From positions 352,001-416,000 of the forward strand of contig CAVSSM010000002.1 of NCBI GenBank assembly GCA_963730605.1: DNA of 64,000 nt, given 5' to 3'. This document shows, one piece after another, positions 9,565 through 56,664 of this stretch. The notes below the pieces were generated by a model. That model saw only the letters and a list, made by a program, of their open reading frames with translations, was not told the DNA's origin and did no database searches. Source of the DNA: an uncultured Chlamydiae bacterium (GTDB taxonomy: Bacteria; Chlamydiota; Chlamydiia; Chlamydiales; SM23-39). Both the position numbers and the translations under genes were made by a program. Position 1 is the stretch's first letter. Every line of letters begins with the position of its first letter.

Positions 9565-9860
9565 TATACACAAATGACTTCAAAAGTTGGGAATATGCCG
9601 AGGCTGCGGACACTTGAAAAAGCTCGGGGGTTCGAGCTTTTTCAAGGGAAGCAGCCCTGAATTTGAGCCAGGCCTTGCCGGCGCCGGGTCCGAGGTCCCC
9701 AAAAACGCATCGTTTTTGGGGTGGGCCGTTGCAGCTCAACTTGAAGTTGAGCGCCGGGGTCCCCGAAGACGCATCGTCTTTGGGGTGGGGTGCAGGCGGG
9801 CTCAAAGGCAGTGGCTGTCCGACGAAGGCAGAAACCAACTTTTGAAGTTGTTTGTGTATA
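9565..9860. mobile_element. IS630-type MITE, family A copy 1 (two 36-nt hairpin units)
   Basis: TATACACAAATGACTTCAAAAGTTGG ... CCAACTTTTGAAGTTGTTTGTGTATA; interior homologous to the other copies. Confidence 0.85.
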
Positions 9861-9886
9861 TTGTCCTGATTCCGCAAGATCCGGTC

Positions 9887-11197
9887 ATGGACAGCGCTTT
9901 TCAATTTTTTACGTGGATCAATAATCTCATCTGGGCTTATCTCGCTTTTCTTATGATCGTGGGGATGGGTTTTTATTTTTCAGTCCGCTCCCGCCTATTT
10001 CAAATCAGGCGATTCGGAGGCATCCTCCGGTCGTTTGCCGCCTTCATTACAGAAGCGTCCAGCCACCGACGGGGCATCCATCCTTTGAAAGCCTTTTTTG
10101 CAAGCGTCGGAGGATGTATCGGCATTGGGAATGTGGTCGGGATCTGCACGGCGATCGAAATCGGAGGCCCCGGCGCAATCTTCTGGGCGTGGATCGGAGG
10201 GCTTTGCGGAATGCTGCTCCAATATTCGGAAGTCTATTTGGGATTGAAGTACCGCGTGAAGAGCGAATCCAATAATTACGACGGAGGGCCGATGTACTAC
10301 CTGCCTGTCGCATATAAGAAGAGATGGATCGGGCCAGTCGCGAGCCTCATTTTGGCCATTTATGGCATCGAAATTTTCATGTTCAATGTCATGGCCGATA
10401 GCATGTCGGTCAATTGGCATATCGACCTTTGGATCATCGTCGTCCTTTTGTGCTTTGCGACGTTTGCCGTTGCGATCGGAGGAATCAAGAGGGTCGGGGA
10501 AGTCTGCAGCGCCATCATTCCCTTCTTCATCCTCGTCTATTTCGGGATGTGCGTATGGGTGCTGGCTATCCATTATTCCGAATTGCCGCGCGTGATGCTC
10601 GAGATCTTTTCTGGCGCCTTTACCGCACAAGCTGCCCAGGGCGGATTTGCAGGAAGCACCGTGATGTTGGCCGTCTCGATGGGCTTATCAAGAGGGGCCT
10701 ATTCAGGAGACATCGGCGTGGGGTACACATCAATCATCTATGCCGAAAGCCGGACAAAGCAGTTCCAGCGCCTCTCCTCTCTTGCCATCTTCGGCCTTTT
10801 TCTCGACACGTTCGTCGTTTGCACCTTGAGCGTCCTCGTCGTCTTAACGACCGGCCTTTGGAAATCGGGCATCGACGTCACCCTGATGGTTCAAGAATCG
10901 CTTGCTCTCCACTTTCCCTACATGAACTATTTTATGCCCTTTTTCCTTTTTCTCCTTGGGCTTACGACGATTCTGGCCTACTTCGTCGTAGGGGTCAAAT
11001 GCGCAAAGTTCCTCTCGCCCAAATGGGGGCCGGTTGTCTACTATTGCTATGCCGCCATTTCGCTTCCGCTTTTTGCTTTCACGAAGCCGAACCATGCGTT
11101 CACGATCATGTCGCTCTCTGGCGCTTTGCTTCTTCTTCTCAACCTTTACGGAATCTTTCGGCTGCGTAAAGAAGTTGTGTTCGGGCTCGACGGGTGA
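9887..11197 (+). CDS. dagA: Alanine/glycine:cation symporter (AGCS family)
   Basis: IGIGNVVG, GGPGAIFWAW, GGPMYY, DTFVVCT; upstream ORF extension is MITE sequence. Confidence 0.88.
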   Translation: MDSAFQFFTWINNLIWAYLAFLMIVGMGFYFSVRSRLFQIRRFGGILRSFAAFITEASSHRRGIHPLKAFFASVGGCIGIGNVVGICTAIEIGGPGAIFWAWIGGLCGMLLQYSEVYLGLKYRVKSESNNYDGGPMYYLPVAYKKRWIGPVASLILAIYGIEIFMFNVMADSMSVNWHIDLWIIVVLLCFATFAVAIGGIKRVGEVCSAIIPFFILVYFGMCVWVLAIHYSELPRVMLEIFSGAFTAQAAQGGFAGSTVMLAVSMGLSRGAYSGDIGVGYTSIIYAESRTKQFQRLSSLAIFGLFLDTFVVCTLSVLVVLTTGLWKSGIDVTLMVQESLALHFPYMNYFMPFFLFLLGLTTILAYFVVGVKCAKFLSPKWGPVVYYCYAAISLPLFAFTKPNHAFTIMSLSGALLLLLNLYGIFRLRKEVVFGLDG

Positions 11198-11209
11198 TAA
11201 GAAAGAATA

Positions 11210-54327: not shown

Positions 54328-54337
54328 CCCTTCTTCT

Positions 54338-55402
54338 TCAGCCTTTTTTTTGGGCGAGGATGTAGTGGCTGGTGGTTACGAGGCCTAGGCGATCCGCTTC
54401 GATGAATGCGTCTCCGTCTTTGCAGAGCCGGTCGAACAGCAACTTGAAATGGCCCGGAAGAATCTTGCACTTAACCAGGAAATTGATAGCCCGATTGACC
54501 CGCGTAAAGAACTTATCGGCATTCTCGATCAAAGGCGCTTGGTAGCCCCCAACGCTCGCATTTTCATTTTTCAGGATCTCGAACCCGGCCTCTTGCAAGA
54601 GACGGGTGCAGTTTCCTACGGAATGGGTGCCGATCGCGCCGATCAGCGGCTTGACCCGGCTCATCAAGGCGGCATGATGCGGATTTTTCGGGTCGTATTT
54701 ATCGAGGCTCGCCCATTCGAGGCATGCGAACCGCCCTCCGGGTTTGAGGAGCCGGTGAATTTCTTTGAAAGTTTTCCCCAAGTCTTTCGCGTAGGTGAAT
54801 ATGCACTGGATTTCATAGATATGGTCGAAAGATCCGTCCGGAAAAGGATAGGGGATCTGATTTAAATTTCTTTTAATGAACTCAGTTCGGCTGGATAGTC
54901 CCTTTTGCAGCGCATATTTTCTCGCGCAGGTTAATTGATCGGGGTCGAGATTCAACCCGGTCACATGGGCTCCGGAACTTGTCGCCATTTGGCTTGCGAC
55001 ACGGCCTCTGCCGCACCCGATATCGAGGGCTTTTTTGCCTGGCGCCAGCCCTAAGTCTTTGCACATATTCTTTTCAAAGAGCTTTTGGTTGGCCATAATG
55101 CTAGCCGATAGATCGATGGCCGGAGGGATATACATCTTTTCCACCTGGCCGACAGAGCAAAGATGGTTGAGCACCGAGTAGTAATCGACAATTTTTTTTT
55201 GGATCTCCTGCTCGTAGTTCGGCCCAAGCTTTTTGATGAGGTCTTCTTCTTCAGCCCAATCGCAGTCGTAGATGACGTAAGAGTTGAGAAACGCGTCGAC
55301 TTTCTCGGGAGGCAGAGTATATAGAGTCTTTAAAGACTTTAACACCGTCGATAACCGGTAAGACCAAAATTGGAACTTTGAAGGAAGCGTAGAAAGAGGC
55401 AT
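54338..55402 (-). CDS. SAM-dependent methyltransferase, sterol C24-methyltransferase-like
   Basis: LDIGCGRG, VTGLNLD, PFPDGSFD, IYEIQ, LLKPGGRFACLEW, YDPKNPHH, AGFEI. Confidence 0.7.
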   Translation of the reverse strand: MPLSTLPSKFQFWSYRLSTVLKSLKTLYTLPPEKVDAFLNSYVIYDCDWAEEEDLIKKLGPNYEQEIQKKIVDYYSVLNHLCSVGQVEKMYIPPAIDLSASIMANQKLFEKNMCKDLGLAPGKKALDIGCGRGRVASQMATSSGAHVTGLNLDPDQLTCARKYALQKGLSSRTEFIKRNLNQIPYPFPDGSFDHIYEIQCIFTYAKDLGKTFKEIHRLLKPGGRFACLEWASLDKYDPKNPHHAALMSRVKPLIGAIGTHSVGNCTRLLQEAGFEILKNENASVGGYQAPLIENADKFFTRVNRAINFLVKCKILPGHFKLLFDRLCKDGDAFIEADRLGLVTTSHYILAQKKG

Positions 55403-55515
55403 GCAAACCACCTTAAATGAATTTCTTGAAATATTCATATCGAGCTCGATTCTGTCAACTTCTTTCATGTCCTTCCTTGACTTCGGGACCTTCATGCTGA
55501 GATACTGTCCTCGTT

Positions 55516-56664
55516 ATGCTTCTTTTTAGATATATACCGAAACAACTCGAAGATTTGGTTTCTGCCTTCGTCGGACAGCCACAAGCTTTGAGCCCGCCTG
55601 CACCCCACCCCAAAGACGATGCGTCTTCGGGGACCCCGGCGTTCAACTTATTCAAGTTGAGCTGCTTCGGCGGCGCCTTCGCCTGGCTCAAATCTTGGGC
55701 GCTGCTTCGCATAAAAAAGGTCCATTCAAGGACCTTTTTTATGATTTCGCAGTGGCATTTTTCCCAAATCTTCAAATTGTTTCGGTATTTCCCGATCCTC
55801 ATTTTGCTTCTTGCCGGATGCGGCCGGGCCCCGCAGCCTCTAGAAAACGCAAGGCCCCTCGTTCTCGTCAGCATCGCCCCTTATAAGTTTATCGCGGAGC
55901 GGATCGCAGGCAAAGCCTTGGATGTTCAGACGATCATCCCCCCGCGCTCTAATCCCCATGTTTTCGAGCCGACGTCGCGTCAAGTTCTCGAAATCTCTCG
56001 GGGCCAGGTATGGTTTCGCATCGGGGAGCCGTTCGAAGCGAAAGTGCTCCTCTTGCTTCAAGAGAGCCATCCCGGCTTGATCGTCTCTGACTTGCGGGAT
56101 GGGATCGAGTTGCAGCCGTTGGAGGACGTTGACCACTCCCTATGCACTCATTGCTCGTCCGACTCTCTGGACAGACATATCTGGCTGAGCCCGAAGCTGG
56201 CCGGCCAGCAAGCAGTCCATATCGCCAAGGTTTTATCGGACCGCTTTCCAGAGCATAGGGAAGAGATCCAAAAAAACCTTCAAGAATGCCTTGCAGAGCT
56301 CAAAGACCTTGACTTAGAGATCCGAAAGCTTCTAGCCCCTCAACAAGCGCGCTCGTTCATCGTCTCCCATTCCGCTTTCGGATATTTTTGCCACGAATAC
56401 GGACTAGAGCAGCTCTCCGTCGAACAGGAAGGGAAAGACGCCCGCCCGCGCCGTTTGGAAGAGATGCTCTCAAAGGCGAGACGCCTCTCTACAGCAGTCG
56501 CTTTTGCCCTGCCCCAGCATAATAACAAGGGCGCACAGATGATCGCAGATGAGATACACATTCCGATTCGGATGATCGACCCCTATTCGGCCGACTATTT
56601 CAACACCTTGCGAACCCTTGCCCAACTCATCGCCGATCCCCGGAGTGAGATTTCTCCCTCATGA
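55516..56664 (+). CDS. znuA: Zn/Mn ABC transporter substrate-binding lipoprotein with in-frame MITE at the N-terminus
   Basis: LLAGC lipobox, NPHVFEP, DRHIWLSP, HSAFGYF. Confidence 0.85.
   Translation: MLLFRYIPKQLEDLVSAFVGQPQALSPPAPHPKDDASSGTPAFNLFKLSCFGGAFAWLKSWALLRIKKVHSRTFFMISQWHFSQIFKLFRYFPILILLLAGCGRAPQPLENARPLVLVSIAPYKFIAERIAGKALDVQTIIPPRSNPHVFEPTSRQVLEISRGQVWFRIGEPFEAKVLLLLQESHPGLIVSDLRDGIELQPLEDVDHSLCTHCSSDSLDRHIWLSPKLAGQQAVHIAKVLSDRFPEHREEIQKNLQECLAELKDLDLEIRKLLAPQQARSFIVSHSAFGYFCHEYGLEQLSVEQEGKDARPRRLEEMLSKARRLSTAVAFALPQHNNKGAQMIADEIHIPIRMIDPYSADYFNTLRTLAQLIADPRSEISPS
55533..55788. mobile_element. IS630-type MITE, family A copy 5, in frame in znuA
   Basis: TATACCGAAACAACTCGAAGATTTGG ... 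CCAAATCTTCAAATTGTTTCGGTAT; net 255 bp. Confidence 0.9.

Follow-up and report, generated by a model that had tools for sequence, protein, structure and literature searches.

What moves the many short palindromic repeats of a chlamydial genome, and do they form one system or several? The question is raised by a window of 64,000 nucleotides (positions 352,001 to 416,000 of contig CAVSSM010000002.1; G000:C2:352001-416000) from an uncultured Chlamydiae bacterium, whose assembly, G000, comprises 2.2 Mb on 12 contigs and is rated 83% complete. The window holds an intact insertion sequence (IS) of the IS630 family, miniature inverted-repeat transposable elements (MITEs) with TATAC ends, a hairpin of about 36 nt and a third family of host elements, which an original prediction took for one active, layered system. 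It is proposed here, as the probable reading, that three independent parasites overlap: IS5-type MITEs, MITEs of the IS630 clade and a self-inserting hairpin micro-element. Their overlap would mostly reflect that an insertion into a non-coding repeat does no harm. What is new is the hairpin family, which the prediction treated as a passenger; the IS630 and MITE tiers are of known kinds.

The IS630, predicted at 47276-48392, is indeed intact, and both of its TA pairs are included in the following coordinates.

47274-48394, minus strand: intact IS630 including the TA target duplication; transposase open reading frame at 47289-48332 (minus strand), 347 aa.

The transposase scores 218 bits against the NCBIfam model transpos_IS630 (NF033545; cut-off 100) and matches Pfam DDE_3 plus HTH; by motif, D168, D248 and E283 are its putative catalytic residues. 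Fourteen full-length copies, every one with an open frame, are 99.8-100% identical across the genome and have unrelated flanks, which points to a recent burst. IS630 duplicates TA on insertion. Correspondingly, all 14 copies stand between TA pairs, and a single TA marks the empty site in G003, a genome of the same genus (~91% identity) that was used for empty-site comparison. Two further DDE_3 families in G000 (6 and 9 matches) were considered and rejected, as their ends are different. The three IS630-type families insert into or adjoin one another at G000:C1:549034-551470 and C7:183190-186300.

The TATAC-type elements of the window are the following; the MITE 50496-50659 lies inside a member of the third family.

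9565-9860, minus strand: TATAC MITE with two hairpins and ends of another type; not present in G003.
12282-12559, minus strand: MITE with two hairpins, of the family whose end agrees with the 5' end of the IS630 (20/21); site empty in run X4 and G003.
18670-18695, plus strand: solo TATAC-type end; a partner end was looked for and none found.
27940-28183, plus strand: MITE of the same family as 12282, with two hairpins in tandem (period 45 nt, direct repeat 8 nt); run X4 has the site empty.
41482-41687, plus strand: TATAC MITE without hairpin, a 204-nt (68-aa) in-frame insertion in the linker of a 2-oxoacid dehydrogenase E2 gene; absent in G003.
50439-50765, no strand assigned: IS5-type MITE carrying a 164-bp TATAC MITE (50496-50659); composite absent in G003 and G002.
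55533-55788, plus strand: TATAC MITE with one hairpin, inserted as 85 codons in frame into a gene for a ZnuA-type lipoprotein, in its signal-peptide region; absent in G003.

The six TA-bounded MITEs have terminal inverted repeats and TA ends and are without transposase. Together with the IS630 they make seven TATAC-type elements, where at least seven had been predicted, with the solo end at 18670 in addition, and the ends quoted for the IS and for MITEs 12282-12559 and 27940-28183 read as written. Genome-wide, a census found 76 TATAC-bounded inverted-repeat pairs, which is more than chance, as three shuffles gave 2, 3 and 0; the scan passes over copies in which an end has changed (27940 and 55533, for example). 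A search of a plasmid collection with MITE 12282 gave no match, and the same hairpin-bearing MITE is present in named records labelled Chlamydiae or Chlamydiales.

MITE ends are of many types, with inner modules common to them. Only 14 of the 76 MITEs match the 5' end of the resident IS630 at 18/21 or better, and none matches its 3' end so closely. The second end of these 14 agrees at 16/21 with the 3' end, the resemblance noted in the original prediction, and at 17/21 with the 5' end; the other IS end is thus not its specific source. Several other MITE end types match related IS630s at 18-20/21, and related IS630s of other genomes share the end pattern of the resident element. Interiors showed no homology to the IS630 in alignment; just the terminal 20-21 nt align, on which ground MITEs as internal deletions of the resident element were rejected. 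Among the 14 matching MITEs, nine have a same-length sibling at 95-97% identity and none has one above 97%. A sibling at 99% or more exists for 14 of all 76, which must therefore belong to families without a close end match, and the youngest MITEs thus appear to be without a close partner IS in the present assembly.

All seven window elements (6/6 MITEs and the IS630) are empty in some relative, as the prediction required of an active system. G003 is without elements 9565, 41482, 50439-50765 and 55533; it is also without 12282, though a different insert lies 8 nt off and a contig break occurs there. One contig each of run X4 skips 27940-28181 and 12282-12558, and the empty site of 12282 reads CA, not TA, in both relatives. 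G003 also has MITE-like inserts of its own where G000 is empty (L192, L197, L182), for example at window 9120, 11615 and ~12275. The order of insertion can be read at one site.

47256-48537, no strand assigned: 163-bp IS5-type MITE located where two genes overlap, interrupted by the IS630.

There, G003 has the 163-bp MITE with a single TA and no IS630, and G006 has neither; therefore, the MITE came first and the IS630 second.

Third-family hosts such as this one start with ATGAGCCTATC. Their end pairs number 22 in the genome, and four of these are elements of 916-919 bp. The one examined holds a DUF4096 frame and a second overlapping frame, which had no Pfam match at 1e-6. Since all four elements share the ends of the hosts, and DUF4096 is present in the one scanned, the third family is best assigned to IS5-type MITEs with an autonomous transposon of their own. 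A 326-nt gap at a start codon fits a target duplication of either 2 or 3 nt. Nesting of TATAC-type elements in this family, as predicted, is seen at 50496-50659 within 50439-50765 and for the IS630 within 47256-48537; the three visible cases are, by our estimate, few enough for chance among non-coding targets. The 916-919 bp element resembles members of the IS5 family, in a group that we take to be IS427-like, in its size of ~0.9 kb and in its DUF4096 frame with a second overlapping frame; here, the autonomous element and the host MITEs have their ends in common.

The smaller hairpin unit that the TATAC elements were said to carry is present in eight copies in the window. A second passenger family occurs beside it.

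55604-55639, plus strand: reference 36-nt hairpin; folds better on the minus strand.
9690-9725 and 9754-9789, minus strand: two copies in MITE 9565, found by sequence search.
12407-12442 and 12486-12522, minus strand: two copies in MITE 12282, found by sequence search.
27978-28058, plus strand: two tandem copies in MITE 27940, found by sequence search.
18435-18470, plus strand: free hairpin that lies in the plsX frame and adds 12-14 residues relative to G004 and G002; diverged copy in G003 with a compensatory stem change.
~9605-9660, 12320-12375, 28095-28150, 41575-41655 and 55690-55760 (approximate): second passenger family, ends CTGCT...CGCAG.

A 36-nt probe found 105 hairpin copies in the genome, and a looser core search found 163 (0 in one shuffle), of which 89 occupy three sites in TATAC MITEs and the other 74 lie elsewhere. 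Their flanks fall into roughly 36 clusters, and in 15 hairpins the left flank belongs to one site and the right flank to another, which recombination between hairpin copies would produce. Junctions vary: one site has +36 nt without repeat, another a unit of 45 nt with a repeat of 8 nt. The stem varies with its pairing retained through compensatory changes. The hairpin occurs in six of a panel of 40 relatives (close pattern), in some of them in other host repeats, and in 4 of 251 genomes of the phylum including G000, all of one family (relaxed pattern). Tandem arrays with a 36-nt period hold 10 units at G000:C5:65878-66232, where a SelR domain follows downstream in the same frame, and nine units at C7:8766-9082. 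At C4:9644-9700, a tandem hairpin with the same ends has an unrelated stem, which suggests a second entry of the family into the genome. At gathering score or E<=1, Rfam, the search proposed with the original prediction, matched none of eight hairpin loci, and in the window it matched rRNA and tRNA alone. The CTGCT...CGCAG family, whose hairpin is variable, gave 71 hits (60 with at least 7/10 pairs, 40 interiors; 0-1 in shuffles) and, with a narrow pattern, 31 GTDB loci, mostly in chlamydial, Verrucomicrobiota-labelled or unnamed bins.

In a wider search, the pattern CCACCCC-N16-21-GGGGACCCCGG matched at least 127 GTDB loci. The 80 titles among the matches listed comprise 67 Acidobacteriota, 6 Bacillota, 2 Proteobacteria, 2 Dormibacterota, 1 Bacteroidota and 2 Actinomycetota, bearing in mind that phylum labels of metagenome bins can be wrong; the two Actinomycetota matches do not fold and are probably chance. 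Statistics were taken from 125 GTDB sites with 40 nt on either side. At 119 of them at least 4/6 inner positions pair, against 6% when shuffled, and the interiors are of 105 different kinds. Direct repeats of at least 3 nt flank 50/125 sites (null 14.5%), and a host stem of at least 7 bp crosses the junction at 16/125, against 2%. The first inner pair, scored at 99 sites, is A-C 46 times, A-T 41 times and G-T once; on the minus strand, this corresponds to a G.T or A-T pair. Inner positions 2-5 have no strand bias. The minus strand is therefore the likely folding strand, and the local hairpins show the same bias at the first inner pair. Five genomes hold 41, 26, 11, 1 and 1 copies (control 0), the first three being Acidobacteriota; cultured carriers are Terriglobus sp. 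2YAB30_2 (41 copies) and Tunturibacter empetritectus M8US30 (11). The pattern is also found at 57 viral loci, and viral contigs are among the carriers. At the GTDB loci, the hairpin often lies inside repeats like repetitive extragenic palindromes (REPs). An 'empty sibling' was flagged at 19 sites, about half of them artefacts of tandem copies; filled and empty host repeats stand within one locus at L059, L071, L099, L107, L109, L142-L144 and L181. The hairpin thus appears to belong to an uncatalogued family, present in several bacterial groups far apart from one another, whose ends (CCACCCC...GGGGACCCCGG) are common to all members and whose stem varies freely. Because it is found without any MITE, in other hosts and in other phyla, it is independent of the MITEs.

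From the observed copy numbers, empty sites, order of nesting, conserved fold and independent contexts, a mechanism in three tiers is proposed. IS5-type MITEs would be moved by their own 916-919 bp element, as the shared ends suggest. TA-duplicating MITEs would form a superfamily whose ends fit an IS630 clade and which DDE transposases would cut and paste in trans; the resident IS630 plausibly moves the one family that shares its 5' end, the 12282 type, and other families would stem from related IS630s. The hairpin, a micro-element of 34-39 nt without terminal inverted repeats or a fixed target duplication, would insert by itself. It may be active when one of its strands (the CCGGGGTCCCC strand) is single and folded; an enzyme working in trans, other than the IS630 transposase, would then join it into unpaired positions of other structured DNA. 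In the present lineage it would have entered a few MITE sites once each and then been amplified by hitch-hiking on MITE transposition, and its copies may serve as portable homology through which MITE modules are deleted or duplicated.

Several observations weigh against this proposal. Siblings within the matching MITE family stand at 95-97% identity and the IS630 copies at 99.8-100%; the family therefore predates the present IS burst. The matching MITE end motif occurs in 15/40 relatives and transposase relatives in 10/40, with poor overlap, and fragmented assemblies lose IS copies. As for the hairpin, 38/125 sites are without any direct repeat, and its strand bias could come from C-to-T mutation bias rather than folding. 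Targeting of host hairpins is just a tendency (16/125 against 5% in a duplex-energy test), and the three MITE hairpin sites are internal loops or stem edges; on both counts, insertion always at hairpin tips was rejected. The fixed hairpin ends are partly built into the search pattern, and local copies vary there. No enzyme was found for the hairpin, so that an enzyme in trans remains conjecture.

The rival that survives best dispenses with an element enzyme altogether: host replication or repair would copy the hairpin, by template switching or when a folded oligomer of RNA or DNA is captured at a nick or a stalled fork. No mobiliser is common to five hairpin-rich genomes (IS110 in 2/5, IS91 in 1/5 and reverse transcriptase in 2/5, each rejected as the shared mobiliser on these counts), and 139 neighbouring frames at 79 loci include no common neighbour gene, with one Y1 and one integrase among them. 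Direct repeats that vary or are absent, the arrays of nine and ten copies and the spread over distant phyla and viral contigs speak for copying of this kind. However, phyla have the ends in common while the stem between them is free, which suggests that a specific protein recognises them; an enzyme may be missed where assemblies are incomplete, and we know of no host pathway that makes hairpin inserts of this kind. Host copying is entertained only tentatively. G000 also has a group II intron-like element, unrelated to the hairpin, in three copies (99.7%) with a 445-aa reverse-transcriptase frame; reverse-transcriptase matches lie at C1:286945, C4:461 and C8:30230.

Rather unlikely is a second rival, in which the hairpin is an atypical REP moved as single-stranded DNA by a REP-associated tyrosine transposase (RAYT/TnpA-REP, HUH), with GGGT as guide foot. 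Its size and its layout of foot plus stem resemble those of REPs, in the part of PMC6006769 that describes them. The dinucleotide CT stands just left of the hairpin in 46% of cases against 16%, and Y1 genes are present in the three hairpin-rich Acidobacteriota genomes tested. The hairpin also occurs in a RAYT's own REP at L099, filled and empty side by side, and in a filled REP beside a RAYT at L413; yet in both cases the enzyme has its own GTAG REP. The 5' foot on the folding strand is GGGT, and no GTAG, GTGG or CGTC foot was found on that side. Y1 matches occur in just 2/6 hairpin-bearing relatives, and the hairpin is near 0/25 chlamydial Y1 loci and 1/17 others. A RAYT in G000 itself was rejected, since its sole Y1 match is the decayed tnpA of an IS605.

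43484-44866: decayed IS605, tnpA remnant and frameshifted tnpB, between gmhA and asd; absent in G003.

The remaining weight among candidates for the hairpin's mobiliser falls to an unrecognised enzyme or to IS630.

Improbable, finally, is the integrated system of the original prediction, in which the resident IS630 moves all TATAC MITEs and the hairpin is an internal module: all MITE ends begin with TATAC and fit the clade pattern, 89/163 hairpins are in TATAC MITEs, 6/6 hairpin-bearing relatives (of 40) also have the matching MITE end and a transposase of relaxed specificity would account for the youngest MITE families, but 62/76 MITEs are without a close end match, 74 hairpins lie outside the three TATAC-MITE sites, with other hosts in relatives and non-MITE contexts in other phyla, and the host family has its own transposon. 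What stands of that prediction is a recently expanded IS630, clade-derived MITEs, nesting, empty sites and in-frame insertions; a single system driven by the 47289-48332 transposase is not supported.

Among the forms that the preferred reading of three parasites could take, one is put forward with considerable doubt: the hairpin may belong to one undescribed cross-phylum family of seemingly autonomous micro-elements that insert into structured single-stranded DNA without a transposase of their own, via a conserved host pathway or an unrecognised enzyme that reads their two ends, as hyperparasites of REPs and MITEs. If so, the hairpin would be a hub of recombination from which modular MITEs are built, and it would steadily supply proteins with inserts of 12 residues.

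Entry into protein frames had also been predicted, and the translated frames agree with it: the inserts would add 68 aa to the E2 linker, 85 codons to the ZnuA signal region and 12-14 aa to PlsX. An in-frame ATG inside MITE 55533, 16 codons before the end of the insertion, could restore the ZnuA signal peptide. The long frame 9587-11197 does cross MITE 9565, but true in-frame coding there is doubtful, with Met at residue 101 and a Pfam domain from residue 156; the part that spans the MITE is probably a mere upstream extension. Genome-wide, 58 frames of at least 150 aa span an element. Nineteen of these, the longest or most gene-like, were scanned, and 15 have a Pfam family. In eight frames the insert is predicted within or between domains: AMP-binding enzyme, NAD kinase, inositol monophosphatase, MurC-Ddl, MurG-type domain, PriA, RecD2 (a 317-bp MITE) and E1 dehydrogenase (a 164-bp MITE). 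The hairpin family would account for odd short inserts in annotated proteins such as PlsX, MurC-Ddl, PriA and NAD kinase.

Other repeats and differences in the window were observed in passing. At 52794-53219, three identical 137-nt tandem units lie downstream of a tRNA-Ser gene (53204-53292, minus strand), and each holds the tRNA-Ser 3' end, interrupted by an extra hairpin segment present here alone. Three 126-nt (42-codon) tandem repeats lie in an autotransporter gene at 63440-63825, and a 19-nt tandem duplication at 17664-17700, just upstream of plsX, is absent in G003. At 24881-25251, 371 nt skipped by one X4 contig lie in the 3' part of an M16 peptidase gene.

Little is understood of how DNA elements of fewer than 50 bases move about: REPs are mobile by inference, and small dispersed repeats (SDRs) are without a known enzyme. 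The present hairpin family has searchable ends, filled and empty alleles together and many copies in cultured strains, so the question can be attacked directly. The IS630/MITE part is a clear example in an environmental chlamydia, with no new principle. Among the papers listed, nothing was found on the hairpin or on the present chlamydial MITEs, the comparison being with published text and not with ISfinder or SDR sequences; the prediction that the system is undescribed thus probably holds for the hairpin family and falls for the MITE tier, which is of a known kind (RUP, Correia). The SDRs of Nostoc, reportedly described by Elhai et al. in 2008 (Genome Res 18:1484), are said to be very small structured inserts of 21-27 nt that undergo compensatory changes and nest in repeats and minitransposons. 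To our knowledge, their mobiliser has not been established. Compared by description only, the hairpin is likewise a tiny structured insert that nests and shows compensatory change, and it differs in its 34-39 nt, its own ends and its occurrence in several phyla. Excerpts of PMC5861425 report SDRs for Nostocaceae among HIP1-rich cyanobacteria, and SDRs are cited also in PMC3116915.

Pairs of MITE and IS630, MITEs fused in frame and REPs that lie within larger palindromes are already on record, as excerpts of PMC3733652, PMC6006769, PMC2229807, PMC3184786, PMC3116915 and PMC5861425 indicate. In the portion of PMC2229807 that treats them, IS630 is proposed to move RUP-type MITEs, and RUP of Streptococcus pneumoniae (with IS630-Spn1) and Correia/NEMIS of Neisseria resemble the present MITEs in TA duplication, IS630-like terminal inverted repeats, lack of coding, insertion into other mobile elements and in-frame gene fusion. 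Unlike there, many end types here have interchangeable inner hairpin modules in common, and one family alone matches the resident IS630. REPs and REPINs with their RAYTs, as outlined in parts of PMC3733652 and PMC6006769, are likewise GC-rich hairpins of 20-40 nt that are multi-copy and sometimes in frame. REPs inserted inside larger palindromes appear in the same portion of PMC3733652, and in the present analysis the hairpin is precisely inserted and nested in other repeats; its end motifs are absent from the four text supplements of PMC3733652, whose figures lie outside a text search. In contrast with REPs, the hairpin has no GTAG/GTGG/CGTC foot or obligate dimers, no cognate RAYT was found, and REPs are here its host. 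The Rickettsia palindromic elements, from the passages on them in PMC2229807, are palindromes translated in frame in conserved proteins of an intracellular-type bacterium, as the hairpin would be; these are 105-146 bp long and genus-specific, whereas the hairpin measures ~36 nt and crosses phyla.

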